DNA of 64,000 nt, taken from a virus. The notes below the pieces were generated by a model. The model was not told the origin of the DNA and ran no database searches. It worked only from the letters and a program-made list of their open reading frames with translations. This document shows, piece after piece, positions 4,158 to 63,700 of this stretch. How positions within the stretch are numbered: the first letter of the stretch is position 1; each line of letters opens with the position of its first letter. Made by a program: the position numbers and the translations under genes. The stretch is from the UHGV virus genome UHGV-0084588; one strand, 5' to 3'.

Positions 4158-4190
4158 GGGGAGGTGCTTTACCTCCCCAGATCTTTTAGC
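4158..4190 (+). promoter_or_regulatory. stem-loop upstream of the tail-fibre start
   Basis: Perfect 8-bp inverted repeat GGGGAGGT-gcttt-ACCTCCCC followed by a short T-rich stretch, after a TATAAAAA box; terminator or 5' UTR structure. Confidence 0.4.
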
Positions 4191-4212
4191 TCCAGATAGA
4201 GAATTAAATATC

Positions 4213-29174: not shown

Positions 29175-30374
29175 TTATCTCGTACCTGCTTCTGCCTGAA
29201 CGTCATCACGGGACGTCAAGTTAGCGTTAACGTGCACTGAAGCCTGAACCACACCGCCGTATTTCTTGTGCAGGTAACCTGTGTGTGGGTTATCCGCCGC
29301 AATATGGTTTTGTAGGTTCTGATTCGCCTGACTGATTGCGTTCGTGTTATTCGCAACCTGTTGTTTAAGCGCATCCAAGTTTTGTTGCAGATTATCAATT
29401 TTCTGATCGGTCTCATTACCCCGCTGTTCTAACGCAGCAATGCGCTGAATCGCTTGGTTGAGCTTGGTGTTCAGATCGTTGATATTTTTCTGTAACTGTA
29501 ACACTAACGAGTTTAGGTTCGCCAGTGCCAGTGCCATTTTCTGGTAGTTTTGTGCAACGACGTTAAGTTGGTCGTTCCACGCTTCCAGAGATTTGACAAC
29601 AGCATCAATACGTTTTCCTAACGCTTCGTCCGCTTTCTTCAATGCGTTGATTTCAGTAATCGTTGCATCAATGGCAGACTGCACGTCGCGGATAAGCGCA
29701 CGGATTTCCGTTTCCGTTAACCCGTTAACCTGATGAATATCCAGATGGTGGACATTACCAGTGGAGTTAATGTGCGCGTTCAGCGCGTCCAGGAAATCGT
29801 TTTTCAGGCTATCGAGAATCGCTTTGATGTTCTCAAGCTGTACAGCATCGCCCGCAGTTATCGCATCTTTAATACCGGCGAGCACTGTAATGATGTATTC
29901 GAAGCCGTAGATATCGCCGACGTCTTTATACGTTGGTGCCGAAGGAAACGTGTCCGGCACATTTCGCAAGTCTTTAAAGCCAACAGTTCGATTATCGAGA
30001 TTCAACTCGGCAATCGCTTGCTCAATCGCGGTCACAACTGCAGACTGTGGACCACCAACTACTTGCGCCGATACCGTGATATCGGTCGGAATCGCGGTGT
30101 TCGTTACAACAACCGCCATTACTACTTCCCGGTTCTTCGTCAATTTCTCGTAAGCCGGGTGTGCAAAAATCAGCTCATAGTCCGTTCCACGCTCATACGT
30201 CGCTCCAGGTCGATTGGCAACCCGCAAGCGGAACGTATCGGCATAAAACGGGCCATCAGGGAAAGCAAACGCACGGTTAACTTTACCTGTACCTAACGTA
30301 ATCTGACGCTCCACGGCGTTAGAGGTTAGGGTTCCCGTTAAATCTAAAGGGTATTGGTATACAATGGAGGCCAT
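29175..30374 (-). CDS. fibre-like protein with N-terminal anchor motif and coiled-coil shaft
   Basis: Start at the ATG at 30374 (AAGGAGAG RBS); N-terminal FAFPDGPFYADTFRLRV...GTDYELIF shared with the three giant tailspikes; long heptad-like region. Confidence 0.6.
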   Translation of the reverse strand: MASIVYQYPLDLTGTLTSNAVERQITLGTGKVNRAFAFPDGPFYADTFRLRVANRPGATYERGTDYELIFAHPAYEKLTKNREVVMAVVVTNTAIPTDITVSAQVVGGPQSAVVTAIEQAIAELNLDNRTVGFKDLRNVPDTFPSAPTYKDVGDIYGFEYIITVLAGIKDAITAGDAVQLENIKAILDSLKNDFLDALNAHINSTGNVHHLDIHQVNGLTETEIRALIRDVQSAIDATITEINALKKADEALGKRIDAVVKSLEAWNDQLNVVAQNYQKMALALANLNSLVLQLQKNINDLNTKLNQAIQRIAALEQRGNETDQKIDNLQQNLDALKQQVANNTNAISQANQNLQNHIAADNPHTGYLHKKYGGVVQASVHVNANLTSRDDVQAEAGTR

Positions 30375-30414
30375 GGCCACTCTCCTTAATCCGAGACGTC
30401 CTTGTCTCGTGGCG

Positions 30415-35601: not shown

Positions 35602-35619
35602 CGTAAAGACTCCTACTTT

Positions 35620-35658
35620 TAAATAAAATGGATACCCCTCCCCATTACAGGGAGGGGT
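35620..35658 (-). terminator. hairpin between tailspike genes
   Basis: ACCCCTCC-ccattacag-GGAGGGGT, followed on the minus strand by a U-rich stretch and the RBS of the next gene. Confidence 0.5.
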
Positions 35659-35695
35659 TACCTACGGACACACAACTGCCCGCAGGCAGTCTGTC

Positions 35696-38600
35696 CTAAG
35701 TACGATCCCCTAACTGCTTCCCGTTAAGTTCTCGTTTCAGTACAGCCAGAATCCACTTCCACGCTTTACTCGTGATGTGGTACGGGTTGCGTTTCTCCAT
35801 TAAGAACTGACTTTCGCCGCTACGGAGTTCGAAACTCTGTGCATTGAGTTGATCTTGACGGACGCTTTTCTCGTCAGTGACATCTAACGAACAAGCGAAG
35901 TTAAGTTCATAACCTTCTGGATTATTGCCGGGTGGTTCTAAGACAATATAAATGTCCTGACCTACACGTAAGTCCTTTGGCGTAAGAGTAATCGCTTTAC
36001 CTGTATCAGAGGCGGTCGAAAGCGCAAAAGATACGCTATCAATAGCCGATACATACGGGTCCTTCCCGGCATCACCGATAATCACTTTACCCGGCCAGTT
36101 AGACTTCACCGTCCCGGCCACTTTTGCAACGCGATACTGCTGTTTATCAGCACCTTGTGCAAAGCGTAAAATGAGTTTATGGCGATAACGACTCGCAGCA
36201 GCTTTAGTCGTGCTCCACTCATTATTCCAGGAAGCGTTGAGTTCACCTTTCTTGGCCATCAAGGCACCACGAGACAGCTTACGGTCAAAGAACTGCGCAG
36301 GCAACTGACCGTCATGGGAAACAGCAACACTTCCCTGTCCGGTTGGCAGCGCGATGCTTTCTGTAACGCGGTATTTTTGACTAACCTCATAAGTCGCAGG
36401 GTCAATCACAGACTGACTAAAATCAACGTCTTTGGTATCAGCCAAATACCCAACGGACGAATCCAGATACGATTCGAACAACGAACGTAAGTAATGGTAC
36501 TTATCAATGTCGACGTTACTCGTAGCCGGATCAATCAGCGCGTGACTAATCGTTACACGGCATTTCGCAGACAGTTCTTTAAACGACAATCCCACACCGT
36601 CGCCAGTGAAATAATCCACTAAATCGAACGGGAATTGAATCTCCAGCTGTCGATGTTTAACTGTTGTCGTTCCGAACTGTGAGAACGTCAGTGCTAAACG
36701 TAATACCCGACTGTTTACGTTGTAACGATAGCGAATCATGCCACGAGGTGCATGGTTTGCAGAAATTTTATCTCGACCGGCACCCCAACCTATCAAGTCG
36801 AGCGTCGCCGCGTTGGTTTCCTCACCGTTGAACAACACATCCTTAAACGTTGCGGCCACTGCCGTTTCCCCAGACTCCTCCATCACTAACGGAATATCCG
36901 TAACAGCAGAATCTGAACGGGAACCAATCCCCAACTTACAGGTTTTGGTAGTTAGGTCAATGCGCAGATAGCGACGTTTAACGCTGCTACCTTGCGTTGA
37001 CGTGCATAGAACCAAATCCGGCGCAGCAGCAAGGGCTTGCGTTCCACCAACATCGTCAACATCGAACGCAAACGAGCCTTCGAATGTCGGTGCGTTGTTT
37101 TCTTTCGGGTTAAATGGTGTAAACCAACAATACGGCGTAGCACCTTCAGGTATCACAACGTATTGAAGACTCGACTTCACGTTTTGGTTGTGTGCGTAGG
37201 TATAAAGGCCGCGACTGACAAGATGGAAAACATCCCCTGTAGCGGTTGCTAACGGTTTCCTAAAGATACACGCTCTTGGTTCAGCAATAGCACGGTTTAA
37301 TAACGGCAGCCGTGGGTTATCCGTTAACGCCCAGTCAACAGCGCTGAGTCCGTGTGCCTTACGAGTGCTGATGTGCTCGCTAACTTCCGCACTTTTCCCG
37401 AAATCAAACGTGGTTTCAAACCCCACAGTTTTATTCGCGTAAGACTGACCAGGAACGATATCAACATATCCGATATAACCGCGCTCTGGGTCAACGGCAA
37501 TACTCTGAATCGGTTCAGCACGCGAATACAGAGAGCCTGTGAGCATGTTAACGTATAAATAGTGACGAACCCCTACGTGCGTTGTAACAAACTCCTGGAG
37601 AAGCTCTACGCGCGTTTCAGGACCACTGAAATAAACGGGGTAATCACCATCGTAAACTTCGAACTGTACCGCTGCGGATTTAGTCGTGTCGCTACACTCG
37701 GCTTTAACCGCCACTGTGTAATTTTCAACGTCTGCTGACGTTTCATACACCGCGACGAGTGGAGACTCGCCTGAAGCGGCCTGGATACCGTTAATGTAAA
37801 CCGTAACCTGACCACCCCCAGCAGCATAAACCCAGAGCTTCGGTTGGTATGCTTTTACACGCGTTTTTGCCAATACAGTAATAACTGACTGGTCACCCAT
37901 CTGTGTAGCAGTCTTACCTACCGGGACAGACTGGAACCCCATCAATGGCGGTTCTTCAATACCCGTCCAGTTGATCCCCGTACCGTTACTCACCTTACCC
38001 GTAGCCCAAGTCAGCTCAAGTTGGTTATTCGGTGAGAACCAGTTAAACATCGGGGTGGTTTGCAGGTCAATCGCACCGGTAACGGTACTGTCACCTTTCG
38101 TGCCGTCCAGCAAATAGAAATATTTCAAATCCTGAACGGAGATTGCCGTACCCTGGCTATTAAATCGCCAGTCTGCGCCTTTTACAGCAGCGAAATCCGT
38201 GACTGTTCCTTCTTTCGCATTTGCAATTGCCGCAGCGACCACACTTAAACGTGCCGAAAGCTCTTTTAAGATGTTCGGTACCACTGCACGGTTTTCAACC
38301 AAACCGTTCTGGTTAGTTGCATAACGACCAATACCGTAAACAGATTGAGAAGCTTTATAAATGCCTAACTCCGACCAATCGTGATGATGGCCTACATCTG
38401 CTAGACCGCTAACCGCCTTAGTTAACTCGGTTGACAACGGTTTGTCAAGGTCTGCGGTGTTATCCGCTTGCCCTAACCCCAGGTCAGCTTTCGTGATTGT
38501 CCTGGAGCCGTCATTCATTGGCTTACCGTTAATCATGGTCGTTTTAGCCACATACCCTGATAGGTCGGTCGAATAAGGTGTTAATGACGCTGGCGTTGCT

Positions 38601-39880
38601 GCAACCCCAACCGTTTCTGTACCTTTACCAGTTTTAAGCTTAACAACACCTTTTTCAGCGGTTGTCGCTTTCGTCGGGTCGATAGTACCCACGATAGGAT
38701 CGGTCCGAGAGCCTTTACCGGTGAAGCTAATCCCATTACGGCCTTCGATGTACACCTTCGAGTCATCAGGGTCACCGCCGCCGCTCCCGCCAGCATCAGG
38801 ATCTTGTTGGTATTCCATCAACGCCGTGGTAGTCAGTAACGGGTTACCATTCAGGGTGAGTTTGTTCATCCCTAAAGCATCGCCGGTTGACTCGATACGT
38901 AAGGTGTTTTTACCAGCACGCCAGTTAATGTAACGTCCTGCACCCGTTCCCTCCAGATGCCCTACCGCCAACACCACAGAACCGTTGGATTTTAACGTAA
39001 AGCCATCATTCGCAAAAATGATTTCTGACTCACCGTTTTTTGAGCGGAATTGTGCACGGTTTCCTGACACCGTACAGTTAAACACACCCCGTACTTCTGA
39101 AGAAATCCAGTGGGAGATATACGTGTCAATAACTGACTGTGGTAAACGAAACGCTTTCAGTTCATCCGTCAGTGCTTTCAACTTTAACCCGTACGCCATA
39201 AAGGTGTCGGGTGTTTTCAAGTTAACAGGATGTGCGCTAATCTGTGCAGAAGTAGTTTGGTGCGGGTTGGTTTCCGCGATGTGTGCCGGGTAGTTAAATG
39301 CTTCGATTTCTTTACCCAGAGCGGTGACTAACGCTTTAACTTCGGCTAATTTATCTTTAATTAGTTGGTTAGCGTCGTCGGTTTTCAATTCAACATCGTG
39401 GACCGCTGACGCTAAATATTTTTTGTTCAGCAAATCCGCCCAGGACGTTGCCGCAGGCGTAGCCGGGTATAACGACGGTCTGCCTTCTAATAACAGCCAA
39501 TCAGCGCTGACTGGGTTATTCAAATATTTCACCAGCTCATCGAGAATGTCAACAAACGGGTCGTAGAACGTACCACCGAGCATTTGTCCTTCAAAGGTTA
39601 CGATGCCCTTGATGGATGGGTTGATAAGGTGTACCCCACAATACACGTTGGCTGCTACCGAGTCATCCAGTTCTGTCAGTTGGTATTGCAGTTCGTAGTC
39701 CACCCCACGACTCAGTGGGGTGGTTGAACCTGGTTGTCTGACGACTAAATCTTCAAAGAACGGGCGATGGTCTAAAATCACCACCCGATCGTTGTTGTTT
39801 TCTGACCCGATGATACGCTCCTCTAAGAAGTGATTCTCGGTTTTCGTCCCCCGAGGATCGTAAGGATACGCTTTCATCAA
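35696..39880 (-). CDS. giant tailspike/tail-fibre protein (1394 aa)
   Basis: N-terminal RVVILDHRPFFEDLVVRQPG...GVDYELQY anchor motif; internal tail-fibre-repeat-like segment (ATTAEKGVVKLKT...TKADLGLGQADNTADLDKPLS) with VGHHHDW. Confidence 0.75.
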   Translation of the reverse strand: MMKAYPYDPRGTKTENHFLEERIIGSENNNDRVVILDHRPFFEDLVVRQPGSTTPLSRGVDYELQYQLTELDDSVAANVYCGVHLINPSIKGIVTFEGQMLGGTFYDPFVDILDELVKYLNNPVSADWLLLEGRPSLYPATPAATSWADLLNKKYLASAVHDVELKTDDANQLIKDKLAEVKALVTALGKEIEAFNYPAHIAETNPHQTTSAQISAHPVNLKTPDTFMAYGLKLKALTDELKAFRLPQSVIDTYISHWISSEVRGVFNCTVSGNRAQFRSKNGESEIIFANDGFTLKSNGSVVLAVGHLEGTGAGRYINWRAGKNTLRIESTGDALGMNKLTLNGNPLLTTTALMEYQQDPDAGGSGGGDPDDSKVYIEGRNGISFTGKGSRTDPIVGTIDPTKATTAEKGVVKLKTGKGTETVGVAATPASLTPYSTDLSGYVAKTTMINGKPMNDGSRTITKADLGLGQADNTADLDKPLSTELTKAVSGLADVGHHHDWSELGIYKASQSVYGIGRYATNQNGLVENRAVVPNILKELSARLSVVAAAIANAKEGTVTDFAAVKGADWRFNSQGTAISVQDLKYFYLLDGTKGDSTVTGAIDLQTTPMFNWFSPNNQLELTWATGKVSNGTGINWTGIEEPPLMGFQSVPVGKTATQMGDQSVITVLAKTRVKAYQPKLWVYAAGGGQVTVYINGIQAASGESPLVAVYETSADVENYTVAVKAECSDTTKSAAVQFEVYDGDYPVYFSGPETRVELLQEFVTTHVGVRHYLYVNMLTGSLYSRAEPIQSIAVDPERGYIGYVDIVPGQSYANKTVGFETTFDFGKSAEVSEHISTRKAHGLSAVDWALTDNPRLPLLNRAIAEPRACIFRKPLATATGDVFHLVSRGLYTYAHNQNVKSSLQYVVIPEGATPYCWFTPFNPKENNAPTFEGSFAFDVDDVGGTQALAAAPDLVLCTSTQGSSVKRRYLRIDLTTKTCKLGIGSRSDSAVTDIPLVMEESGETAVAATFKDVLFNGEETNAATLDLIGWGAGRDKISANHAPRGMIRYRYNVNSRVLRLALTFSQFGTTTVKHRQLEIQFPFDLVDYFTGDGVGLSFKELSAKCRVTISHALIDPATSNVDIDKYHYLRSLFESYLDSSVGYLADTKDVDFSQSVIDPATYEVSQKYRVTESIALPTGQGSVAVSHDGQLPAQFFDRKLSRGALMAKKGELNASWNNEWSTTKAAASRYRHKLILRFAQGADKQQYRVAKVAGTVKSNWPGKVIIGDAGKDPYVSAIDSVSFALSTASDTGKAITLTPKDLRVGQDIYIVLEPPGNNPEGYELNFACSLDVTDEKSVRQDQLNAQSFELRSGESQFLMEKRNPYHITSKAWKWILAVLKRELNGKQLGDRT

Positions 39881-39890
39881 AAAATTCTCC

Positions 39891-42800
39891 TTAATCGCGA
39901 ATGATTACCGCCTGCACTTTATTGTTGGTGTCGATAAACGACATTACGCGCTCCTTGTTAAGATAAGGAGGTATCGGTAACGCAGCGTAATCCGCCAGGC
40001 TGTTATTAAATTCAGTTGCCACTAACGCATTAAGCGTTTCGGGGTCTGAGCTGACACCGGCCAATTCCATGACGCGTACTCGATTTAATGAGGAATAGTT
40101 GCTAATATAGTCCAACAACGTACCGTAGACTTTATTCGCAGTTGCGCTGTCTGCTGTAGAGCGGATGTTGGCACGAACCTCATCCTCATAAAGTCCCCCT
40201 AAACCGTAGTAAATAGGGGTATACGGATCATTAACAATAGGTTCGATATTGAACCCGGTTAAACGGTCGACTAATGGGATTTTCTGCGTAGTTCCCCCTG
40301 CTGCCGTACAGCTTACGTATTTATCTGTCGTGGATAAAAACACCACGATAGTATACACAGTGCCAGCTAAAGTCAGCGATGCATTAAACGTTATTGCGTT
40401 GTTTGCACCACGGGTGTGGGTAAACGTTACGTCAGGTTGTAATGAACTCCACGGTGCAGCTGTAACACGCTTCGTTGGTGTGAAACCTACCACTACCGAT
40501 TTCCCGCTACCGAAGTTCAAACCGAACCCTGCGTAACAATATTCACCGTTACTGTCAGTTAAACGATAACCGCGAGTGATGAGTAATGACAACCGCATAA
40601 ACTCGCCGTCGGTGTTCTTCCAACAACCTAAAACAGTTTCTAACACTGTTCCGGTTTTTGCGTTGCTTTCTGTTTCCCAACTTACCCGCATTCCTGCGTT
40701 TTTGAAAGTCGGGAATAAGTTGTGAATAAAACCATGAAGGTTATCACTTACCCCTTTCGCATCGAAAACCCACTTTGATGCGAGCTGGTCGTATTTCACC
40801 CCGTCTAAGGCTCTATACTGTCCACCGACGACATAACGCCAATCTGCTTCACCACGTACTACTGCCTGGAGTCCCGAAGCCCAGCAGGGCGCACCTACCG
40901 TTAAGTTAGCTAACCCAAGCACTGCACGTGTCGTGGAGCGGTGAATATGCGCGTTATCGTCAGCAGCGTGATCTTTCAGTTCACGGAAATCGTCCAGCCG
41001 TGTGACGTTACGCATCTCTGTAACGAACACTTCAGAAAGGTCATTGACGCCGATTAATCCCACACGCGTCATGGTATCCGTTTCAGCCTGACTGTAGCTG
41101 TCGTGAATAATGTACTTCGCTTTGTTGTCAACAATATCAACAAAAATCCCCGCGTAGATTTCTGTATTCAACTTCGGAAAACGTTCACTGACGTTAATCG
41201 TCGTCAACGGCACGGTGTATGTTTCGCCACCGATAAAATACGTTGATGCTGGAAGTGTAACCAGTATTTTGTCTTTGACCGTAACATCAATTAAGTCGTT
41301 ACCAGACTTACCAAAACGTATAATGTCGAGACGTGCCTCCGAGTCAACACCCCCGACAGCACTTTCCAATTTTTCAATCTGGGTAGTCTGCGCCATTACC
41401 ACACTGCCATCGAGTGCTAAAGTCGCGTCGTCCACATCCAGACCAAATTTAATCAAGCCACGTTTCGCGGTGGTTGCGTTCCCGGTACCAAATGCGGTAA
41501 ATGGGTGGTGGTGTACTTTAGGCGAATATTTATCTAACTCCGCCTGCTGTGCTGTGGAGATCGGCAAATCGACATCGGGTGTATTCGCAACGTTACCCAA
41601 ACCAAAGGTAATTTTGTCGATAGTAACTGAGCTGGTAAGTTGCATGTCGTTAATGTACGATTTAGCTGCAACTAGTTTACCGGTAAACTCAGCGTCCAGT
41701 TTTTCAATCAATGCGGGGGTTGCTGCGAGATTTTCAGCCGTACCGAATTCGTCCGTTAACTGCCAACACGCTAACGTAGTAACGTCTTCGGCAACCGGAA
41801 GAATAAACGTTGCTACGAATGGCGATGCTTTAATCCCACTACCGGTAAGTTCCACCGTAGCTGTAGATGCACCGTAGAATAATCCCGTACCACCTGCAGT
41901 ATTGCCCGGCAAATACGGCGCTACCGTGGTGGGGTCTAAGAGCTTCTTACCACGCCACAGTAATCCTCGGTCATCGGGATATAGCACAAGCTGGTTGTCG
42001 CCCGCTTGCAACGTTACCGGGTTGTTACCCACGTTAACATCAGTAGAACCTTGGCCGATGAACTTAATGGATTTCGGGTCAACGACAAACTGGGCACCTA
42101 AACGGGTCCCGTCAACGACATCGGGCGCTTTCTTAATGGTAACCGTGTTACCTTTATTCCCCGAGCTAATAGTGACGTTGTCAGCAACATTACCGATCAA
42201 TGATTTAAAGTGGTGGCTATTCTCCAATGCTTCTAGTGCAGCGTCCATGTTAGTGAAGTTAACACGTGCACTATATGTCTTGCCGTTTATGGTAATAACG
42301 ACATCAAACACGTTCCCTGTGCGTTTCAGTTGAAAACGCAGCGTAAAATCCCCATCCGGTATTGCTGGATTAGGAGCTTGGGAAAGATACTGAACTTCCG
42401 GTGTGGGATTCGAAAAACCGTTCAGTTCCAACTTAACGCCGACTTTACCCGCAGAAATTTCACCTGTAAGCTGGATAAATTTTCCAGAGTTAGTACCAGG
42501 TTTCTGATAGAAACGTAGGCTAACCGTACCGACGGCTTCATTACCAGACGCTGTTTTACGTCCGGTAACAATAAAGTCAATATCTTGCAGGTTAGCAGGT
42601 ACCGCATTAAAAGAAGTGGTGAATCCACTCTTCGTTCCTGTGTAACGAAGCGCACCGTGATACCTGTGACCATTACTAACGTAGCTTTCGCTAAAACGAG
42701 GACTCACGTATTTCGACATTGACACCGGGTCAACTTCCGTCGTGAACGAAGTAAAACCGGGCAGCGTTCCAATAGTTCCGTTAGCCGTTTTCGTAGCTGA

Positions 42801-44213
42801 CGTGCGTAATAGTTTCTTTTGTGCTGTCAACGTCGCTTGTGTTGGATACTTAGCATTAACATAGTCCGTTAACTGCGGCTTCGTTTTTCCGTAAGCTAAT
42901 GCTGCATCCGACGCAATGCCGTTCAACTCTAACGCACGGATCGGACCCCACGTATCTGTGTGTGGGTTGTCCTTACGTGTAACGTGTTCGTGCGCAGGCG
43001 CATTACGATACAGCTGCTCAACTAACTGATGATACTTAACTATTAACTGGTAAACATCGTTATCGACGTCGGGCTCCGGCGCACCGGGTAAAGAACGAAT
43101 TTGAACATAATCGTTTTCAGCCGCATACCAGTTCAGGTTAATGTTCGTTTTAGACTTCAACCATTTGGCTACATTCGTTTTCGAATACCCTGCCGAGAAC
43201 TCATCAGGCGGCGTATCGACGTTGAATGTATAATCCATGGTCTGTTTATTTGTTTTTACTACGATTACGTAAACGCCGTTTCCGGGCTGACGGGTTACAC
43301 TAAAATCGATATCGTTTTTTAACTCATCGTCAGTTAAACCGTTGATTAAAGTATAATCGTAGTTTGTTGAACCACTGCCAATAGCGACAGTTAAGACCAG
43401 TGAGATTTTGCGCTGTTTTAGCTGTAACCGTAGAATGCTTGCACCGCCGTTGGCATAACAGAGCATCCAATCGATCTGCTCGTTCGGATTCAACTTTGTC
43501 ATGTCTGGCAGAATAGCAGGAATTCTGTGTTTCACCGACAGGGAATAGTCGTTAAAGGTTGTCGCGTTATAACTCAGGCTATAACGGTGGCGAGCTGTGT
43601 TGTAGGTGAAACCGCCTTTATTATCGTACGCGGCATACTGCTCGGAAGTGATAACCTTGCTATTAGCACGATATTCCAAATCCAGTGTGTTGCGTGCGAT
43701 TGGGTTAAGCCGACTCACGACTTCCCCTAACGAATCGCCTACCCCAGCAATGGCCTGCATTAGCTCCAGTTCACCTTTCCAATTCTCCCAATCGAACTGG
43801 ATATCGACCGGTGGAAAGTAAACGTCTCCGATAACGGTGTCCCACTGACACGCGGAAGGGTATTTACCTTTATTAAGCTCGCGCTCTGCGGTAATCTGCT
43901 CTTGGGTTGCTTCACCGCAACCAACGGCATGGTAATCTACAGTAAAGTTCGATTTGTATTTGTCATTAACAATCCAAATCATCCCGTGAATGAGATAGGC
44001 TGTGCGCAACATACCAGTCTCGTACGGGTGTGTAATAACGTAATCGTCGCCTAAGGTCAGTATTTTGCCGCCGCTCTTGACCACCAGGGATGTGGTGAAA
44101 AAAGGGGCGTGGGCAGGTACCAACATTCGGTATTTCGTACCAATGACGGCGACCGCTTCACCGGTTATTTTATTCCCCGGTTTTTTGAAGTGTGGGTCTA
44201 AGACGACAGCCAT
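39891..44213 (-). CDS. giant tailspike/tail-fibre protein (1440 aa)
   Basis: N-terminal YRMLVPAHAPFFTTSLVVKSGGKILTLGDDYVITHPY anchor motif; FGLGNVANTPDVDLPIS and KVHHHPF segments. Confidence 0.75.
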   Translation of the reverse strand: MAVVLDPHFKKPGNKITGEAVAVIGTKYRMLVPAHAPFFTTSLVVKSGGKILTLGDDYVITHPYETGMLRTAYLIHGMIWIVNDKYKSNFTVDYHAVGCGEATQEQITAERELNKGKYPSACQWDTVIGDVYFPPVDIQFDWENWKGELELMQAIAGVGDSLGEVVSRLNPIARNTLDLEYRANSKVITSEQYAAYDNKGGFTYNTARHRYSLSYNATTFNDYSLSVKHRIPAILPDMTKLNPNEQIDWMLCYANGGASILRLQLKQRKISLVLTVAIGSGSTNYDYTLINGLTDDELKNDIDFSVTRQPGNGVYVIVVKTNKQTMDYTFNVDTPPDEFSAGYSKTNVAKWLKSKTNINLNWYAAENDYVQIRSLPGAPEPDVDNDVYQLIVKYHQLVEQLYRNAPAHEHVTRKDNPHTDTWGPIRALELNGIASDAALAYGKTKPQLTDYVNAKYPTQATLTAQKKLLRTSATKTANGTIGTLPGFTSFTTEVDPVSMSKYVSPRFSESYVSNGHRYHGALRYTGTKSGFTTSFNAVPANLQDIDFIVTGRKTASGNEAVGTVSLRFYQKPGTNSGKFIQLTGEISAGKVGVKLELNGFSNPTPEVQYLSQAPNPAIPDGDFTLRFQLKRTGNVFDVVITINGKTYSARVNFTNMDAALEALENSHHFKSLIGNVADNVTISSGNKGNTVTIKKAPDVVDGTRLGAQFVVDPKSIKFIGQGSTDVNVGNNPVTLQAGDNQLVLYPDDRGLLWRGKKLLDPTTVAPYLPGNTAGGTGLFYGASTATVELTGSGIKASPFVATFILPVAEDVTTLACWQLTDEFGTAENLAATPALIEKLDAEFTGKLVAAKSYINDMQLTSSVTIDKITFGLGNVANTPDVDLPISTAQQAELDKYSPKVHHHPFTAFGTGNATTAKRGLIKFGLDVDDATLALDGSVVMAQTTQIEKLESAVGGVDSEARLDIIRFGKSGNDLIDVTVKDKILVTLPASTYFIGGETYTVPLTTINVSERFPKLNTEIYAGIFVDIVDNKAKYIIHDSYSQAETDTMTRVGLIGVNDLSEVFVTEMRNVTRLDDFRELKDHAADDNAHIHRSTTRAVLGLANLTVGAPCWASGLQAVVRGEADWRYVVGGQYRALDGVKYDQLASKWVFDAKGVSDNLHGFIHNLFPTFKNAGMRVSWETESNAKTGTVLETVLGCWKNTDGEFMRLSLLITRGYRLTDSNGEYCYAGFGLNFGSGKSVVVGFTPTKRVTAAPWSSLQPDVTFTHTRGANNAITFNASLTLAGTVYTIVVFLSTTDKYVSCTAAGGTTQKIPLVDRLTGFNIEPIVNDPYTPIYYGLGGLYEDEVRANIRSTADSATANKVYGTLLDYISNYSSLNRVRVMELAGVSSDPETLNALVATEFNNSLADYAALPIPPYLNKERVMSFIDTNNKVQAVIIRD

Positions 44214-54890: not shown

Positions 54891-54921
54891 TACACCACAC
54901 TCCGTCTTTATGGAGGTGGGT

Positions 54922-57426
54922 ATGCTAAAAGTTGAACGCATTATACTCAAAGGTTTTACGGGGATGGGATTACATGAAATTGAAACTTTCGATTTCACTA
55001 TCCAGTCTCCAACAACAATTATCCTGGGTGGGAACGGTTGCGGGAAAACCAGTCTACTGTCTGTATTCTTACCCTTAGCACCGGCTAAAACTGAATTCAG
55101 AGACGGCGGTTCTTACACGAACTACTGTTTAGTTGGTGATCAACGGTATCGATTCAAAGTTGCCCGTAAAGGTAACTCTTTGGTTTGCGATATTGAAAAT
55201 CTGACCACGGGAGCAAAGATCGTCGAGCAAGGTAATGCGAAGGTCTACAACTCCCGTGTTGAAGAAATCACGGGTATTACGAAAGAAATTAAAGAACTAT
55301 TAAATGGTGATGTTTTGTTAACCGATGCGGGAACCGAATTACGCCGTAAATGGTTTTACCGTTTAAGTACCTCTGATCTCACATACGCGTTAGGGTTTTA
55401 TCAACGTTTGCGTAAAAACCTTACCGCCTTAAATGGGGGTATTGAAATCACCAGTCGCAAGATTGCCGAATTACGGACGCGTGTTATTGAGAACGAGGAA
55501 GAACGACAACAATTAGCAACGAGATTAAAAGGTCTGGAATCGGATTTACGTGAACTGAACCGAGAAATCGAACAGTTGCCAGGATTAAATCGTGCTGTCA
55601 CGATCGAAACAATCCAAGCGTTATTAAACGGTTTGGGTCCAACCATCGACGCAATATTACAACATCGTGGTGGGTTGCCTACTGATGAACAGATACTGGT
55701 CGCCCGACAAAATGAAGCGACAGCCCGCGAAGCCGTCGTTTCTACCGAAACAGAGGTATCGATGTTGAATAAAGATTTATCGCTATTGATGGATGAGTCA
55801 ACACGACAAGACTACCTGATGCGGAATCACGAAGGTCTCAAGAATACACTGGCACGTTTACGTGAGTTACTTACCAAGTGGGACACCGAACATCTCTTTC
55901 CAGGTTTATTTAACGATAACGTTAATTTAGACCAACTTCGTGCGGCTACCGATGCGCGTGTTTGGGGACAACGGTTGGGGACAACACTGGACGCTATTCA
56001 TTCAACCGAGAAACTCAATGTTTTGGAAGAACGTCTTCTGGTGATGGATCAAAAAACCGCAGGATTACGGGATAGACTCCAGCGAGTGGAGAACGTTTTA
56101 CAGAATTTAAATCACGAGCGTAACCACTACTTAGAAACGGCAGAAGTGGATTGTCCGCAGTGTCGGTTTAAGTTTCGGCCAGGTGTTACGCGTTCTTTAC
56201 CTGAACTCGAGTCATCGATTCGTGGACAACAACAGCAGCGGACGGAACTGCAAACGCAGTTAGAGACTTTATTACGCGATCGTGTTGAATTAGAATCTGA
56301 TGTAACTTATATGCGGCAGGTTCGTGAGATTGTACTGACGTATTCAAAAGACCCTGTATTGAGCATGTTCTTTAAGCGTTTGCAAGAACGTAACGTTTTC
56401 ACAGAGTCTCGCGAGCAGTTCGGGAGTCTATGCGCAGCGTTTGACGGTGAGTTGTACTCTGCTATTGAGTACCATGAAACCCGACAACGGTTAGTGAAAG
56501 CGGAAAAAGAATGGCAGGATGCCGTGGCGGCCGTTGGTAACGTCGATGGTGCTTTACAACAAAAGATCGCCTTCCAACAGTCACGGTTAGGTAAAGCCAC
56601 AGAGATGCTCTCAATGCGTCGTAGAGAGCACGAACTGGCTAACACGACACTTACCTATCTAGTGAATGTTAAACGTGCTGTAGATGATTTCAGTGCGTTA
56701 TTCGAACGGTTAGAGAGTGATGTTAAGGTTACTTTGACAAATACGGTCGTCGAGGAGCTCTTACGAGTGCGGGAAGGGAAGCTGGATGCTTTTACAACTG
56801 CACGCGAACGTTATCGTCAGATGGAAAACGAATTGAATCAGCTCAACAGTTTGGAGCGCGAACTTACAGACTTACAAGCCCAACAGTTCAATAACAAACT
56901 GATGATTCAAGCCTTCTCGCCAGAAAAGGGTGTACTTAGAAAGTATTTTTACAACGCTATCGTTAGAATCACAGAGTTAATGACGCGTTATATCGAACAG
57001 GTCTGGACGTACCCCATGCGCGTTATGCCCTGTGATCTCACTGACGGTGATTTGGATTATACTTTTCCTGTCCAGCTAAAAACGCACCCTGAGCCTGTTC
57101 CTGACGTGCGTAAAGGGTCTAAGGCACAGCGTGCTATATTTAATCTGATGTTCAGACTGACTGCGTACAAAGCGTTGAAGTTGCATCAGTTTCCGTTGCT
57201 TTTGGATGAGCCTTCGGAAGGCATGGACGAGGAGCACCGTAATAACCTGGTCGGCTTTATTAAAACGTTAGCAAACTCGGGAGAATTTTCACAGCTGTTG
57301 GTAGTCTCCCACGAAGCCGAGGTTCATTCTAAACTTAATGAAGCATCGTACTGTGTCATCGAACCGGAAGGAGTGACATTGCCTGCGGTGTATAACGAAG
57401 GAGTAAAAATTGTTTATGCAAACTGA
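54922..57426 (+). CDS. SMC/Rad50/RecN-like ABC-type ATPase with long coiled-coil
   Basis: Start at the ATG at 54922 (GGAGGTGGG RBS). N-terminal Walker A ILGGNGCGKTSLLSVF; about 550 aa of Glu/Leu/Arg/Gln-rich coiled-coil with a central CPQC hook-like motif; C-terminal Walker B LLLDEPSEGMD and VVSHEAEV. Confidence 0.65.
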   Translation: MLKVERIILKGFTGMGLHEIETFDFTIQSPTTIILGGNGCGKTSLLSVFLPLAPAKTEFRDGGSYTNYCLVGDQRYRFKVARKGNSLVCDIENLTTGAKIVEQGNAKVYNSRVEEITGITKEIKELLNGDVLLTDAGTELRRKWFYRLSTSDLTYALGFYQRLRKNLTALNGGIEITSRKIAELRTRVIENEEERQQLATRLKGLESDLRELNREIEQLPGLNRAVTIETIQALLNGLGPTIDAILQHRGGLPTDEQILVARQNEATAREAVVSTETEVSMLNKDLSLLMDESTRQDYLMRNHEGLKNTLARLRELLTKWDTEHLFPGLFNDNVNLDQLRAATDARVWGQRLGTTLDAIHSTEKLNVLEERLLVMDQKTAGLRDRLQRVENVLQNLNHERNHYLETAEVDCPQCRFKFRPGVTRSLPELESSIRGQQQQRTELQTQLETLLRDRVELESDVTYMRQVREIVLTYSKDPVLSMFFKRLQERNVFTESREQFGSLCAAFDGELYSAIEYHETRQRLVKAEKEWQDAVAAVGNVDGALQQKIAFQQSRLGKATEMLSMRRREHELANTTLTYLVNVKRAVDDFSALFERLESDVKVTLTNTVVEELLRVREGKLDAFTTARERYRQMENELNQLNSLERELTDLQAQQFNNKLMIQAFSPEKGVLRKYFYNAIVRITELMTRYIEQVWTYPMRVMPCDLTDGDLDYTFPVQLKTHPEPVPDVRKGSKAQRAIFNLMFRLTAYKALKLHQFPLLLDEPSEGMDEEHRNNLVGFIKTLANSGEFSQLLVVSHEAEVHSKLNEASYCVIEPEGVTLPAVYNEGVKIVYAN

Positions 57427-57595
57427 TTGGTTCCGTCGTTTTATGGACGCGGCGGGGTTTGGTTTCATGTCCATTCTAGCGGTTCTTTATGTCATGTTTT
57501 GCGTGGTGATGATTTTATGGGTAGTTTCATCTTATCTGATTAAACTATCGTGGGGTTCAATTTGGCGTCAACGTGAATGCGAATGGCGGAATTAG
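57410..57595 (+). CDS. small membrane protein
   Basis: 61 aa with a hydrophobic core (FGFMSILAVLYVMFCVVMILWVVSSYLI); TTG at 57410 or ATG at 57416 as start; overlaps the end of the ATPase gene. Confidence 0.45.
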   Translation: MFMQTDWFRRFMDAAGFGFMSILAVLYVMFCVVMILWVVSSYLIKLSWGSIWRQRECEWRN

Positions 57596-57606
57596 GAGAA
57601 GGGAAT

Positions 57607-57705
57607 ATGGTTGAAGGGGTTCTGTTAACACTTGGTGCGATGTGGTTAATCGGTAAAGGTTTAAACTTGCTGGTTAAACAACACAGATGGGCGTTTGAAG
57701 ATTAA
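57607..57705 (+). CDS. small membrane peptide (32 aa)
   Basis: AGGAGAAGGG RBS then ATG; MVEGVLLTLGAMWLIGKGLNLLVKQHRWAFED; under 60 aa, so not in the ORF track. Confidence 0.35.
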   Translation: MVEGVLLTLGAMWLIGKGLNLLVKQHRWAFED

Positions 57706-57762
57706 ACGCCCAAATAATCCGGAAAATACCCTCCGGCGTGAGGGTATTACTAGGAGCAGAAA

Positions 57763-57891
57763 ATGACCTCGATAAACACTACGAATGTAGCGATATCCGC
57801 ATTATACGATGCGGAACTTTCATGGGGTGGATTAATAATCACCACGGCCATATTAGCCGCAGCGGCATTCGTCATCGCGCGTTGGTTTTAA
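57763..57891 (+). CDS. small membrane peptide (42 aa)
   Basis: TAGGAGCAG RBS then ATG; MTSINTTNVAISALYDAELSWGGLIITTAILAAAAFVIARWF; preferred over the overlapping 57738..57941 track ORF, which has no RBS. Confidence 0.35.
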   Translation: MTSINTTNVAISALYDAELSWGGLIITTAILAAAAFVIARWF

Positions 57892-57922
57892 TTTTACTTT
57901 TTTGCGTCTCTAAGGTTTGCAA

Positions 57923-58366
57923 ATGGAAATTTATTTGTTGAACGCATCTTCTAAAGTCGGCGAACGACAAGCTGCCGATTTACTCAAACTACACTACCGT
58001 TACTTGGACCACCAGGCTACATTACTAAAAATCAAAACGTCGGTACCGAAATTAAAAGCTCGACAACTGATCGAAGGTAACTGCATAGTTCTGGTGTATC
58101 AGGATGATGTCGCGGTAGGATACTGTAGTTATCGGAATCGTAACGGTTCACTTAAGATACGTTCGGTATACGTGCTCCCAGACTATCGTCAGCGGGGTGT
58201 AATGAAAGAGATTTTCAAAGCAATTGCCGCCGATGAAGTTTTCGGTGAAATTGTTACTGGCATGTATGCGAAATGTAAAGAAGCAAAAGAGTATTTCATC
58301 CGACGCGGTTATCAGGCGGTTTACTCACACGATCGTGAGTGGGTCGATTTTAGCAAAACATTCTAA
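57923..58366 (+). CDS. GNAT-family acetyltransferase-like protein
   Basis: SVYVLPDYRQRGVMKEIFKAI resembles GNAT motif A (acetyl-CoA binding, Q/R-x-x-G-x-G/A); 148 aa from the ATG at 57923. Confidence 0.45.
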   Translation: MEIYLLNASSKVGERQAADLLKLHYRYLDHQATLLKIKTSVPKLKARQLIEGNCIVLVYQDDVAVGYCSYRNRNGSLKIRSVYVLPDYRQRGVMKEIFKAIAADEVFGEIVTGMYAKCKEAKEYFIRRGYQAVYSHDREWVDFSKTF

Positions 58367-58432: not shown

Positions 58433-58678
58433 ATGTTAAAATCGTACGGAGTGGGTGGTTTGGATACGAGTATTTGTTGGAAAGAATACGAACGTGCAAA
58501 AGCGTTCTTACAACATCCCAATGTAGGGACAATAGGTAAGGTCTGTTTCGGCAAACCTACGTTGACAGCTTGTATCCAAGGGGCTTTAGGAACGTTGCCA
58601 CCCGAAACACATTTCGAGCCTGAGGAGAATACGAATGTTCACAGAGAACCCATCAATTTACGGCATACCGTTGAATGA
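58433..58678 (+). CDS. hypothetical protein
   Basis: 81-aa ORF; GGAGAG RBS. Confidence 0.5.
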   Translation: MLKSYGVGGLDTSICWKEYERAKAFLQHPNVGTIGKVCFGKPTLTACIQGALGTLPPETHFEPEENTNVHREPINLRHTVE

Positions 58679-59003
58679 AATTGACATTCTACAAATTTGT
58701 TATCAGTGCGACGACTTTGGTAACACGCAGGTAACAGAGCTAGTTAAGCTTTTAGGTTACTTACCTGAAATCGAGCTACCTTTTGTTAAACCCAGCTTGG
58801 TTCGTCGTGCATCGTGTCGCGAAGCTTATTTGTTGTGGAAACACAATATTTCAGTAGAGAAGGTCTGGGACCGCATGAACGATCATCAGTTCCGTGAACA
58901 GGTTGTGCACACGCTCAATTTGGCACTGACTATGCAACGGCTGGGCTTACAACACGAAGGTTTAGAAGCGGCGGTCAAACAATGGATTACAAAAAATCGC
59001 TAA
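58635..59003 (+). CDS. hypothetical protein
   Basis: 122-aa ORF; GAGGAG RBS; overlaps the upstream gene. Confidence 0.55.
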   Translation: MFTENPSIYGIPLNEIDILQICYQCDDFGNTQVTELVKLLGYLPEIELPFVKPSLVRRASCREAYLLWKHNISVEKVWDRMNDHQFREQVVHTLNLALTMQRLGLQHEGLEAAVKQWITKNR

Positions 59004-59090
59004 TGGGTAAAACATATATCGCTATACTTGTCGAGCTATCAATCGGCGGTACACGTTTTAATACTACACATCAACTACGGCCGATTCGTT

Positions 59091-59588
59091 ATGTTAACGG
59101 TACGTAAAGAATCTGAAATTGGTAACGATCTTTTTAATGCGCCCGAAGACTATAAAGTCGTTACCATTAACTGTGTAGGAGCAATGGGTCGCGGTATTGC
59201 GCTGGCGTGCCGTGAACGCTACCCCAACCTTTATCAAGATTACCGTAAGCGGTGTCGCGAAGACGAAATTAAGATTGGAAGTGTTTACGTTTACCCTGAT
59301 GAAAAGTGCATCTTGCTCCCCACGAAAACACATTGGCGTTTAAAGTCCCAGGTTTCTTATGTTACTGCGGGCATTACCGCATTAGCAGATTGTATTGAAG
59401 AACTGGATACCAGCGTTGCTATCCCTCCACTGGGAATGGCAAATGGGTGGTTAGATTCCTGGGAAAGACAAGAAATCTTCTTGTGGCTTTACAAAAAACT
59501 TGAACCGAGGAGGCAACGCTACACGTTATACTTACCCGATAAGCTGTACCGAGAAGCAGAGTCATTAATTCCAAACTCTTTTAAATAG
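59091..59588 (+). CDS. macrodomain protein (TARG1/OARD1-like ADP-ribose hydrolase)
   Basis: From the ATG at 59091: GNDLFNAPEDYKVVTINCVGAMGRGIALACRERY...AIPPLGMANGWLDSWERQ parallels human TARG1 ([34 protein letters not shown]...SMPRIGCGLDRLQWENV) as recalled; no clear RBS, so the start is uncertain. Confidence 0.55.
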   Translation: MLTVRKESEIGNDLFNAPEDYKVVTINCVGAMGRGIALACRERYPNLYQDYRKRCREDEIKIGSVYVYPDEKCILLPTKTHWRLKSQVSYVTAGITALADCIEELDTSVAIPPLGMANGWLDSWERQEIFLWLYKKLEPRRQRYTLYLPDKLYREAESLIPNSFK

Positions 59589-59688
59589 ATATTATCATTA
59601 GGGCACACAACAAAGGAGTATTAGCTGTCCGCGCCGTCATTTCGTCTTACGGAATACGGAAATGTATAAATCCAACTGGAGAAACAAA

Positions 59689-60387
59689 ATGTTTCGTATC
59701 TTCTTTCTTTTACTGGTAACACTTTTCGCGTTTAACGCACAGGCGTCAACGTCAACGCCGCAAACTAAACATCAGCGTGAATTTACACAAATCCAACATC
59801 GGTTCGAAAAGGTCAGTCCGTTAATTGTGGAAATCTCACGAAAGCAAGGCGTTGATCCTAAGCTGATGATTACGCTGATTTATCGCGAATCGCGTTTTGA
59901 TCCCAAGGCTTACAACAAAAGCACACGAGCGCACAGCCTAGTACAGATGCTTCCAAGTACCAAGCGCAATCTGCTAAAGCTTTATGGAAAAGAATTAGGT
60001 CTTAGTCAGAACGCTGATTTGTATAATCCGCGTAACGCTGTTTTGCTGGCTACCGCGTATGTTAAACATCTTGAGAAGGGGTTAACCAAACGACTCAAAC
60101 GCAAGCCCACCATGGCTGAAGTTGCGTTAGCTTACCACTGGGGTGAAAGTGGCGCTCACACGCGAATCAAAAGCAAATCTCGAGCAGCACAACGAGAAAT
60201 GGCAGGCTTTATGAAAGACGCCGCGTTCTATAGCGCGAAAATCGATGTGCCTGTTGTTGTGGGCTCGGCCCCACGTCAGCTTGCGTTTGCGAAGAAAACA
60301 CCACGTCAGATTCAATTGGCGGAAGTTAGTAAAATTTGGGATACGATAAACACGAGTTTTCCAATCAATAGAGGAGTTACCCTTTGA
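59689..60387 (+). CDS. secreted lytic transglycosylase (SLT domain)
   Basis: Start at the ATG at 59689: signal peptide MFRIFFLLLVTLFAFNAQA, then ESRFDPKAYNKSTRAHSLVQMLPST matching the SLT catalytic motif (E-S...GLMQ-x-MP-x-T). Confidence 0.65.
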   Translation: MFRIFFLLLVTLFAFNAQASTSTPQTKHQREFTQIQHRFEKVSPLIVEISRKQGVDPKLMITLIYRESRFDPKAYNKSTRAHSLVQMLPSTKRNLLKLYGKELGLSQNADLYNPRNAVLLATAYVKHLEKGLTKRLKRKPTMAEVALAYHWGESGAHTRIKSKSRAAQREMAGFMKDAAFYSAKIDVPVVVGSAPRQLAFAKKTPRQIQLAEVSKIWDTINTSFPINRGVTL

Positions 60388-61492: not shown

Positions 61493-62425
61493 ATGACTTT
61501 TCCATCTGAAGTAATTTACGAACTGGCTAACACTCTACGTCGTCGTTATAGCTACCATATGCTGCAAACCAGCGTAGGTCCAACCGCTGCTTTTCTGCGT
61601 AACCATTTCCTAGGCAGCAATCAGTCTTCAATTACGCAGGAAACGATTTTCTCTATCGATCGTACCACCGATATTCTTCCGATTGACTGTGCAATTGCGG
61701 TTCAAAATGGGGATACGTTCAACTTCGCCATGGGAATGCGCCATACAACCGTTACTGTTGACCCAAGCGTGGGGATCGAACATTCTTTCATGCGTAATCC
61801 GTATCCACTGTCGGATAACTGGTTCGTTGTTGTAGAACAAGGCGTGAATAAGTACGAAGTTGTTGCGGCGCACGACGAATCTTTCTTTGGTTTGGGGGAG
61901 ATTTCACGTCCCCTGGAAATTGCTCTCGAACTTCGACAGGGTAATATCGGATTAAATGGGGGTGTTGTCTACTTCATCCTGAGCAACTGGGCGCATGTGA
62001 GCCACGTCCTGAGAAAAGCTGACGCAACGTTCCATGCAACAAAAGTAAGTTACTTCTCCGCTGAGAATAAAGTTCAAGACGAAGAAGAAACAGTACCTGG
62101 CACAGAAGTCGCCGTTTGTGAAAACTACGACGATCTGAAATCTGTACTCGTTAAGCGTGATGTTTTCGAATCGTTAAACCTGGATTTCCCTGGTGACGAA
62201 AATGAAATATCCGTAGCTGATCTGGTAGAAGCATTGTGTCAGAAAGACCAAGCTAACGAAATTAGCGACGAAGAAGCGGAACTCTTCCAAGTTCAACAAC
62301 TCGTCAGCAAGGTTATCGGTGGCCAGGAAATCGTTGACACCCTTATGGCTTTACCGCCGAAGAAACGTACTCAAAAGTACATTCGTGAACTGGTTCTTGA
62401 CAAGCTGGGCCAAACCAAAAAATAA
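61493..62425 (+). CDS. hypothetical protein (paralog of 62487..63035)
   Basis: 310 aa; N-terminal FPSEVIYELANTLRRR...FLRNHFLG parallels the next gene; acidic C-terminal tail. Confidence 0.6.
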   Translation: MTFPSEVIYELANTLRRRYSYHMLQTSVGPTAAFLRNHFLGSNQSSITQETIFSIDRTTDILPIDCAIAVQNGDTFNFAMGMRHTTVTVDPSVGIEHSFMRNPYPLSDNWFVVVEQGVNKYEVVAAHDESFFGLGEISRPLEIALELRQGNIGLNGGVVYFILSNWAHVSHVLRKADATFHATKVSYFSAENKVQDEEETVPGTEVAVCENYDDLKSVLVKRDVFESLNLDFPGDENEISVADLVEALCQKDQANEISDEEAELFQVQQLVSKVIGGQEIVDTLMALPPKKRTQKYIRELVLDKLGQTKK

Positions 62426-62486: not shown

Positions 62487-63035
62487 ATGTTTCCATCGTC
62501 TGAATATTTAACTCATCTGGCTTACGGTATTCGCCGTGGTTCTGTTTTCCGCACACGTTTAAAGGATATAAATTTCCTGGCTAATTTCTTATATAACCAT
62601 TTTGGTGATGGAACTAACGTTTACAAAAAGATCACCTCAACACAACTTTATTCCCTTATAGCGGCGTCTGAAATCGTACCTACAGATATTTGGCGATTCA
62701 AACGTTATAACGGAGATATTACAATCAGTTTTCTTGATCATTCCCCTATTACCGTTGAAATCGCCGATCGTATTGACATTAATAGTGAAATGTCTGGTTG
62801 GAAGATTCTGTTTGATTGTGGCAATCGTTATGCGGTACTTGGCTCCTCTGATGAACGTGACTTCCCATTCGACAGGCCCTACTATTACCTTAGCGAAGAT
62901 GATTTCCCGGATAAAGAATCCAATATCTATTTAAACGGGGATACCGTTTACTTCATTTTTCGTACTTGGAACGACGTTGCTGCTATGATTGCTCAAGGCG
63001 TCATCGATTACCGTAAGCTAGAAGTCGACATTTAA
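62487..63035 (+). CDS. hypothetical protein (paralog of 61493..62425)
   Basis: 182 aa; TAGGAGTATTAAAATG context. Confidence 0.6.
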   Translation: MFPSSEYLTHLAYGIRRGSVFRTRLKDINFLANFLYNHFGDGTNVYKKITSTQLYSLIAASEIVPTDIWRFKRYNGDITISFLDHSPITVEIADRIDINSEMSGWKILFDCGNRYAVLGSSDERDFPFDRPYYYLSEDDFPDKESNIYLNGDTVYFIFRTWNDVAAMIAQGVIDYRKLEVDI

Positions 63036-63078
63036 AATAAAAGCTACCCTACTCCTTCTGGAGTAGGGTAATCTTTTT
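63036..63078. terminator. bidirectional terminator between convergent genes
   Basis: A-run, then TACCCTACTCC-ttct-GGAGTAGGGTA, then T-run; same stem sequence as the hairpin at 21856. Confidence 0.8.
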
Positions 63079-63700
63079 AGTTAACTAACCCGTTAGCTTT
63101 AAGAATCTCTAACATTTGGTTGTTTAACTCTTTTAATTTTTTGTTTTCTTCTGTCAACGCAGCAACTTTCTCGCCTAACGGAATAGACTCACGAATTTTA
63201 TTTTTTCGTGCCGCTTCCATCTGCAAGTGTTGTTCCTCCGTTACCTTCCCCTCATACTCGAGAGTTGTAATTTCAACTTTCGGTTCAATCCCCAGAGTAT
63301 GCGTGAGAATATCTGAAACGTCTTTTGTTATAGACGACACTTTCACGTAATCCGGTACTAGTGCCAAATCTACCACTAACACATTTCGTTGATACGTGAT
63401 CCCGGATAAACCTGGGTACGATTCCAGGTAGGTGTCAGGTATGTATACAACTTGACCATCACGAGATTTAAATGTCAAAATCGACGCACTAACATTCGCA
63501 TCTGCTAAATATTCTTCACGCCCTAGCCCTGCTGGCTGGTAATACGAATTATAAACGTCGATATTCTGACGTACTAAATCTGGGAAGGTACGCGATGCCT
63601 CTACCGTATAAATGACTGTCTCGGCTAAAGTAAATGGTGTTTTTACTTTAAACAGACCCGTGGTGTTGACTGGTACCTGTAGTGGTAAACGCGTAGCCAT
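63077..63700 (-). CDS. hypothetical protein
   Basis: 207-aa ORF with a C-terminal coiled-coil-like tail (EKVAALTEENKKLKELNNQMLEILK). Confidence 0.6.
   Translation of the reverse strand: MATRLPLQVPVNTTGLFKVKTPFTLAETVIYTVEASRTFPDLVRQNIDVYNSYYQPAGLGREEYLADANVSASILTFKSRDGQVVYIPDTYLESYPGLSGITYQRNVLVVDLALVPDYVKVSSITKDVSDILTHTLGIEPKVEITTLEYEGKVTEEQHLQMEAARKNKIRESIPLGEKVAALTEENKKLKELNNQMLEILKANGLVN

Follow-up and report, generated by a model that had tools for sequence, protein, structure and literature searches.

A candidate AdfM-type orphan macrodomain gene in an uncultured jumbo phage related to Asesino and SPN3US

The macrodomain gene and its start

The window analyzed here, a 64,000-nt stretch of DNA from an uncultured metagenomic phage, carries an open reading frame on the + strand that runs from an ATG at position 59091 to a TAA at 59586-59588 and encodes a macrodomain protein of 165 aa (Table 1). 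The identical 498-nt gene was called independently on a 220,786-bp metagenome scaffold (ERZ28659250, ZHAN15-1_SAMEA2737849_METAG-scaffold_21) carrying the same protein, and the GC content of the gene (0.438) matches that of the window (0.447). The macrodomain gene is real, and its identity lies far beyond chance. The start codon was placed at 59091 because aligned homologues begin at the position of this ATG; 25 of them start within about one residue of it, with one exception that has a 9-aa extension. An in-frame TTG at 59028 was ruled out as the start, since the extra 21 aa that it would add are missing from the homologues.

A scan for sigma-70 promoters and terminators between positions 57400 and 60500 returned promoter-like sites at or below the level found in shuffled sequence, with none upstream of the macrodomain gene. 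Such an uninformative scan is to be expected, given that relatives in this phage lineage are annotated with RNA-polymerase subunit genes of their own. A small ORF on the + strand shares 17 nt with the macrodomain gene, including its start codon, and gene calling on the source scaffold reports it too. No homologue of this ORF was found among the SPN3US and Asesino neighbours examined, and it is probably not a gene. Translational coupling of the small ORF with the macrodomain gene, for which there is no obvious Shine-Dalgarno sequence, is conceivable but unsupported.

Table 1. Features at and around the macrodomain gene, in window coordinates.
Feature	Position	Strand	Basis or remark
SMC/SbcC-like ATPase	54910..57426	+	Synteny anchor; Asesino gp207, SPN3US gp080
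GNAT acetyltransferase	57917..58366	+	Orthologue of Asesino gp212 and SPN3US gp075
Two overlapping hypothetical genes	58433..59003	+	Without DarT/DUF4433 signal
ORF of 34-41 aa over the macrodomain start codon	58982/59003-59107	+	Without detected homologue
Upstream spacer, 87 nt	59004..59090	+	Without clear Shine-Dalgarno or sigma-70-like promoter
adfM-like gene (165-aa stand-alone DarG2-type macrodomain)	59091..59588	+	ORF and translation, profile matches, AF2/Foldseek, orthology; stop included
N27 codon (AAC); TaqDarG N22, PhiKZ AdfM N23	59169..59171	+	Invariant in 26 homologues
T78-K79-T80-H81-W82 codons	59322..59336	+	Alignments to 5m31, 5m3i, and 4j5r
G115-M-A-N-G-W120 codons, ADP-ribose-grasping loop (TaqDarG G117-A-G-N-G-G122)	59433..59450	+	
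C-terminal extension of about 17 aa (P149...K165), past the end of DarG and PhiKZ macrodomains	59535..59585	+	Alignments
SLT lytic transglycosylase, directly downstream	59662..60387	+	Asesino gp218, SPN3US gp068

Genome setting and synteny

Comparisons at the protein level place the window in a jumbo phage of the Asesino/phiEaH2/SPN3US group (Erwinia phage Asesino, Salmonella phage SPN3US). Its SMC-like ATPase is 70-71% identical to those of Asesino, a nucleus-forming phage, and phiEaH2, and 58% identical to that of SPN3US; the large minus-strand genes of the window match SPN3US-type virion-protein PHROGs, and the scaffold is 221 kb in size. When the 3 kb around the macrodomain gene were compared by megablast to 50,697 GenBank phage records, no match was retrieved, so that protein-level searches were needed and the phage is an undescribed one at the species level. 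Chimallin and PicA genes were not located in the regions examined, and the window phage may form a nucleus, judging from its relationship to Asesino. Contigs of up to 226 kb carry homologues of the macrodomain protein at 89-90% identity, and two of these contigs (226 kb and 79 kb) come from Salmonella enterica assemblies, which suggests an enterobacterial host.

The window, SPN3US, and Asesino have in common the gene order SMC, small ORFs, GNAT, an 81-aa hypothetical gene (similar to SPN3US gp074 and Asesino gp213), a 122-aa hypothetical gene (similar to SPN3US gp072 and Asesino gp214), macrodomain, and SLT. Sequence and position both identify the macrodomain gene as the syntenic orthologue of Asesino gp217 (YP_009290835.1; 61% identity over the full length) and of SPN3US gp070 (66% identity by tblastn, 64% in a global alignment). 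One or two additional small genes sit in this block in each of SPN3US and Asesino, so we regard it as a variable accessory region on a conserved backbone. No DarT-like domain was detected by Pfam in the 10 flanking proteins, and no ADP-ribosyltransferase (ART) was seen among the neighbours of the macrodomain gene.

The window, SPN3US (gp075), and Asesino (gp212, 37% identity) all have a GNAT gene upstream of their macrodomain gene, and in the Serratia phage Moabite an acyl-CoA N-acyltransferase gene overlaps the start of the macrodomain gene. The idea of a functional GNAT-macrodomain module was dropped, as the Moabite GNAT is not BLASTP-homologous to that of the window, whereas the GNAT of Asesino is. 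We treat the proximity of the two genes as local synteny and not as a conserved module; its recurrence, Moabite included, may be a coincidence or a convergent pairing. Between the SMC-like and GNAT genes, tiny hydrophobic ORFs of 61, 42, and 42 aa (57410-57891, + strand) may encode membrane peptides, and small hypothetical genes occupy the matching place in SPN3US and Asesino.

Family assignment and predicted fold

The protein was matched by the Pfam Macro profile above its gathering cut-off (E = 5e-6), by PHROG 335 (E = 2.6e-35), by the PADLOC DarG profile (E = 1.8e-37), and by the NCBIfam profile antitoxin_DarG, NF048014 (E = 2.7e-36). The NF048014 match covers only positions 7-154 of the 338 in the profile and scores 125.5 bits against a curated cut-off of 250 bits, so the window protein comprises only that half of DarG which holds the macrodomain. 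In the PDB, the best sequence matches were 5m3i (E = 2.8e-26) and 5m31 (E = 3e-21), which are the DarG macrodomains of M. tuberculosis and T. aquaticus, respectively, per Jankevicius et al. 2016, and to which the window protein is 35-39% identical over the aligned segments. A profile built from 26 sequences retrieved these DarG macrodomains at E-values of 5e-46 and 2e-41 and a Thermosipho DarTG fusion at 2e-28, and TARG1 only at 1e-7, followed by Poa1p-like and alphavirus macrodomains.

An AF2 model generated from the same 26-sequence alignment predicts a macrodomain fold with confidence (pLDDT 92.6, pTM 0.89). In Foldseek searches with this model, the top matches were TaqDarG and MtbDarG, with E-values of about 1e-13, TM scores of 0.77-0.86 (0.78-0.86 for TaqDarG alone), and an rmsd of about 2 Å, followed by 7omu, SCO6735, and then TARG1 (structure 4j5q, E = 1e-7, TM 0.69/0.77). 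On the basis of sequence, profile, and fold comparisons, the window protein belongs to the DarG branch of the TARG1-like macrodomain class. The original prediction, which was made from the sequence alone, had already assigned the product to the TARG1/OARD1 class and grouped it with the antitoxin domain of DarG, and both assignments agree with the predicted fold, with the Pfam, PHROG, and DarG profile matches, and with DarG macrodomains being the best matches in sequence as well as in fold. Its name for the protein, TARG1-like, gives the right class, but DarG is much closer than TARG1, to which the window protein is only 18% identical, and the Asp corresponding to TARG1 D125 is missing.

The same searches bear on a housekeeping reading, in which the protein would clear NAD-derived metabolites as an ADP-ribose-1''-phosphate phosphatase or O-acetyl-ADP-ribose deacetylase. 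Homologues of the window protein are labelled "phosphatase" or "Appr-1-p processing" in GenBank and PHROG, and the Poa1p-like phosphatase 6lft is a weak and partial match (E = 0.019 with the single sequence and 6e-7 with the profile, residues 8-66 only). These labels, however, were passed on by generic macro-domain annotation and have no experimental origin, DarG gives the best matches over the full length (1e-26 to 1e-46), with E-values 20-40 orders of magnitude better than those of 6lft, and the PhiKZ homologue gp104 has a demonstrated DNA glycohydrolase and anti-DarT2 function (PMC13309987). We therefore consider a metabolite-clearing enzyme very improbable, and the DarG-type assignment corrects labels that are misleading in dozens of phage genomes.

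Active site and subtype features

Residues were mapped onto the TaqDarG residues of Jankevicius et al. using HMMER alignments and a MAFFT alignment; in the MAFFT alignment and in the distance tree described below, the DarG and TARG1 sequences are the aligned segments of HMMER matches only. K79 falls in the catalytic Lys column (TaqDarG K80, TARG1 K84, PhiKZ K78), and the equivalent of TARG1 K84, to which the original prediction had drawn attention, is thus present. Along with N27, T78, G115, and G119, it is invariant across the 26 homologues. In TaqDarG, the K80A mutation inactivates the enzyme and N22A lowers its activity, both residues being required (Jankevicius et al. 2016). Around the lysine, T79, H82, and W83 of TaqDarG correspond to T78, H81, and W82 of the window protein, W83 being the residue proposed to stack on the modified thymine, and TaqDarG K29 corresponds to R34.

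The ADP-ribose-grasping loop shows both conservation and substitution. The TaqDarG residues G117, N120, and G121 are retained as G115, N118, and G119 of the window protein, and TaqDarG G119 is replaced by A117, with Ala also found in PhiKZ AdfM, an active enzyme. The position of TaqDarG G122 is taken by W120, a Trp specific to the Asesino/SPN3US type. The column of TARG1 D125, the residue that resolves the lysyl-ADPr intermediate in TARG1, holds G119 in the window protein, as DarG and PhiKZ AdfM have Gly there too. Beyond the macrodomain, the C-terminal extension contains a helix at residues 150-157 in the secondary structure of the AF2 model. Taken from the alignments, the predicted active site of the window protein is intact.

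Compared to DarG2 of the DarTG2 toxin-antitoxin and defence systems of T. aquaticus and M. tuberculosis (5M31, 5M3E, 5M3I; NF048014), the window protein thus preserves the counterparts of K80 and N22, the TK(x)HW motif, and the GxxNG loop at the identities and TM scores given above. Unlike DarG2, it is 165 aa long instead of about 340 and is without the C-terminal DarT-binding domain, and it is phage-encoded with no adjacent darT, which points to an orphan counter-defence enzyme and not to a member of a toxin-antitoxin pair. Human TARG1/OARD1 (C6orf130; 4J5Q/R/S) shares with the window protein the macrodomain subclass, the catalytic Lys (K84, here K79), and a TM score of about 0.7-0.8. The two differ in that the window protein has Gly, like DarG, where TARG1 has D125, and Trp where TARG1 has A90. 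The substrates of TARG1 are protein Glu-ADP-ribose and O-acetyl-ADP-ribose, and that of the DarG clade is thymidine-ADP-ribose in ssDNA.

Relation to AdfM of PhiKZ and other phages

A macrodomain of chimalliviruses was recently named AdfM, which stands for anti-DarT factor macro (Morgan et al., Cell Rep, April 2026, PMC13309987). The gene was reported in about half of chimalliviruses, and the published alignment includes PhiPA3 gp108, PhiKZ gp104, Goslar gp83, and Asesino gp217 (PMC13309987). In that work, PhiKZ AdfM stripped ADP-ribose from a DarT2-modified oligonucleotide, with lower activity for N23A, and fully rescued E. coli from DarT2 toxicity. Deletion of AdfM in PhiKZ and PhiPA3 lowered titres by 3-6 logs on DarTG2-expressing hosts, and phage DNA became ADP-ribosylated without it (PMC13309987). 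When fused to GFP, the proteins of PhiKZ, PhiPA3, and Asesino accumulated in the phage nucleus; activity and genetics were measured on the PhiKZ and PhiPA3 proteins, and for Asesino gp217 localisation only (PMC13309987). A resemblance of viral macrodomains to DarG has also been predicted in generic terms.

The window protein agrees with AdfM in being a free-standing DarG2-like macrodomain of about 160 aa; its jumbo phage, here an uncultured one, is probably of the chimallivirus type. Both the conserved Asn and the conserved Lys that are a trait of AdfM are present, the Ala in the GxANG loop is common to the window protein and PhiKZ AdfM, and the gene is the syntenic orthologue of a named member of the family, Asesino gp217. 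A comparable case is AdfN, a NADAR orphan antitoxin of T-even phages directed against DarTG1 (Johannesman et al. 2025, PMC11825919), in which a phage likewise keeps the enzymatic half of a host antitoxin as an orphan that erases ADP-ribosylation from DNA. AdfN differs, however, in its NADAR fold and in its target, the guanine-ADP-ribose made by DarT1, and it does not act against DarTG2 (PMC11825919).

Nevertheless, the window protein is not particularly close to the PhiKZ protein. The two are 34% identical, and PhiKZ gp104 is thus no closer than the bacterial DarG macrodomains. When 1.84 billion cluster representatives were searched exhaustively, only two clusters, which represent the window protein's own clade, reached E-values below 1e-30, and 1,936 clusters were retrieved at E < 1e-10, many of them containing DarG-type macrodomain proteins of 300-390 aa with no more than 48% identity. 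When ranked by BLOSUM62 distance from the window protein, PhiKZ gp104 came 138th of 166, and many full-length DarG-like proteins ranked ahead of it. Chimallivirus macrodomains did not cluster in a neighbour-joining distance tree of 167 DarG-like domains, a tree which is without support values and in which distances are near saturation, and the separation of PhiKZ AdfM from the window protein is only suggestive. The AdfM loci of PhiKZ and Goslar share no neighbours with the window, the macrodomain gene being the sole match. Further differences from PhiKZ AdfM are W120 in place of Gly, the C-terminal extension of about 17 aa, and a pI of 7.6 compared to 5.05 for PhiKZ gp104.

The low identity, the lack of clustering and synteny, W120, the C-terminal extension, and the pI leave room for an independent capture or an altered specificity. 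Instead of being a vertical relative of PhiKZ AdfM, the Asesino/SPN3US-type macrodomain could have been captured separately from a bacterial DarG, and could have gained W120 and the C-terminal helix later; these could tune it to another DarT variant or to another ADP-ribosyl-nucleic-acid linkage, or could determine its nuclear import. We regard this scenario as possible but doubtful. If it were true, AdfM would be a convergent function that was captured repeatedly, with specificities particular to each subtype. These caveats do not contradict an assignment of the window gene to the AdfM type.

Escherichia and Shigella phages of 53-78 kb that carry a podovirus annotation, as well as a 58-kb Sashavirus, also encode DarG-like macrodomains (32-37% identity), and nucleus-forming jumbo phages are therefore not the only carriers of orphan DarG-type macrodomains.

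Proposed function

We propose, with a probability of about 0.8, that the window gene encodes an AdfM-type orphan antitoxin that reverses DarT2's ADP-ribosylation of phage DNA. We call it an orphan antitoxin because it has neither the DarT-binding C-terminal half of DarG nor a DarT gene next to it. By analogy with published work on its homologues, from which DNA de-ADP-ribosylation, DarT2 neutralisation, and nuclear localisation are all drawn, infection of a DarTG2-carrying host would free DarT2, and the freed toxin would ADP-ribosylate single-stranded phage DNA at thymidines within TNTC motifs, thereby impairing phage replication and packaging. The phage macrodomain would bind the ADP-ribosyl-thymidine through the G115-W120 loop, T25/N27, and the aromatic W82, and would use K79 to cleave the bond between ribose and base, which would restore unmodified DNA. 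Its action would be purely enzymatic and would not involve sequestration of the toxin, since the DarT-binding domain of DarG is missing. As Asesino gp217 localises to the phage nucleus, the window protein is probably imported there as well, which is the site of the DNA.

The original prediction had suggested that a phage copy of such a macrodomain might counter DarT-type ADP-ribosylation imposed by host defence, and this suggestion is supported, by analogy, by the orthology to gp217, the presence of K79, and the data on PhiKZ AdfM (PMC13309987). The anti-DarT idea itself is no longer new, because Morgan et al. have published the function and have named the closest cultured orthologue, and for the same reason the locus opens no new question. 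What the window adds is an uncultured jumbo phage of the Asesino/SPN3US lineage, from a gut metagenome, that carries AdfM, which widens the known range of the family. It also fits the idea that DNA-targeting immunity has to be repaired enzymatically even by phages that form a nucleus.

We also weighed targets other than DarT2-modified DNA, with the macrodomain acting on protein or RNA modified by other host ART defences, or, as a regulator, on the targets of phage-encoded ARTs. Among solved structures the next-closest relative is TARG1, a protein glycohydrolase working with the same Lys; jumbo phages commonly carry macro domains as well as ARTs (PMC9503650), and the clade-specific W120 and C-terminal helix could shift specificity. 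DarG is nevertheless far closer to the window protein than TARG1 is (5e-46 compared to 1e-7), and the aromatic W82 specific to DarG is kept where TARG1 has Ala. The lack of the TARG1 Asp and the absence of an ART among the neighbours speak in the same direction, as do the presence of the orthologue gp217 in the nucleus, where the DNA is, and the statement of Morgan et al. that DarG2 macrodomains act exclusively on DNA (PMC13309987). A protein or RNA target thus seems unlikely to us.

The other function raised in the original prediction, degradation of ADP-ribose-derived signals, found no support. Apart from the general notion that Macro domains could process ADPr derivatives, nothing connects the window protein with the breakdown of immune signals such as Thoeris gcADPR: it is not homologous to any known sponge or signal-degrading protein, its DarG-type active site is built for nucleotide-linked ADP-ribose, and the phage nucleus keeps its orthologue apart from signalling in the cytoplasm (PMC13309987). 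We find such a role scarcely credible, and DarT2-modified phage DNA remains our preferred target.

Other genes in the window

Several other genes in the window are worth recording. Downstream of the SLT gene, two adjacent genes (61493-62425 and 62487-63035, + strand) are paralogues sharing 30% identity across some 180 aa (E = 1e-12), and neither has a Pfam match; the product of the first has an additional acidic C-terminal region of about 130 aa. They are followed by a gene for a 207-aa protein (63077-63700, - strand) that belongs to Pfam DUF7194, matching over its full length (E = 1.6e-71); its counterparts by position, Asesino gp221 and SPN3US gp064, are both annotated as hypothetical. Four consecutive genes on the - strand (29175-44213), encoding proteins of 434, 1727, 1393, and 1439 aa, cross-match the same virion-structural PHROGs (2163, 7449, 8078, and 7557) and look like tandem giant paralogous virion proteins of the kind typical of SPN3US-like phages. 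A radical SAM domain protein of 444 aa (24877-26211, - strand; PHROG 1802, E = 4e-114) is encoded in a jumbo-phage structural/accessory region. Lastly, a 1500-aa tail-fibre protein (4153-8655, + strand) has mosaic matches to 55 tail-fibre PHROGs, which suggests a modular, recombinant receptor-binding protein.
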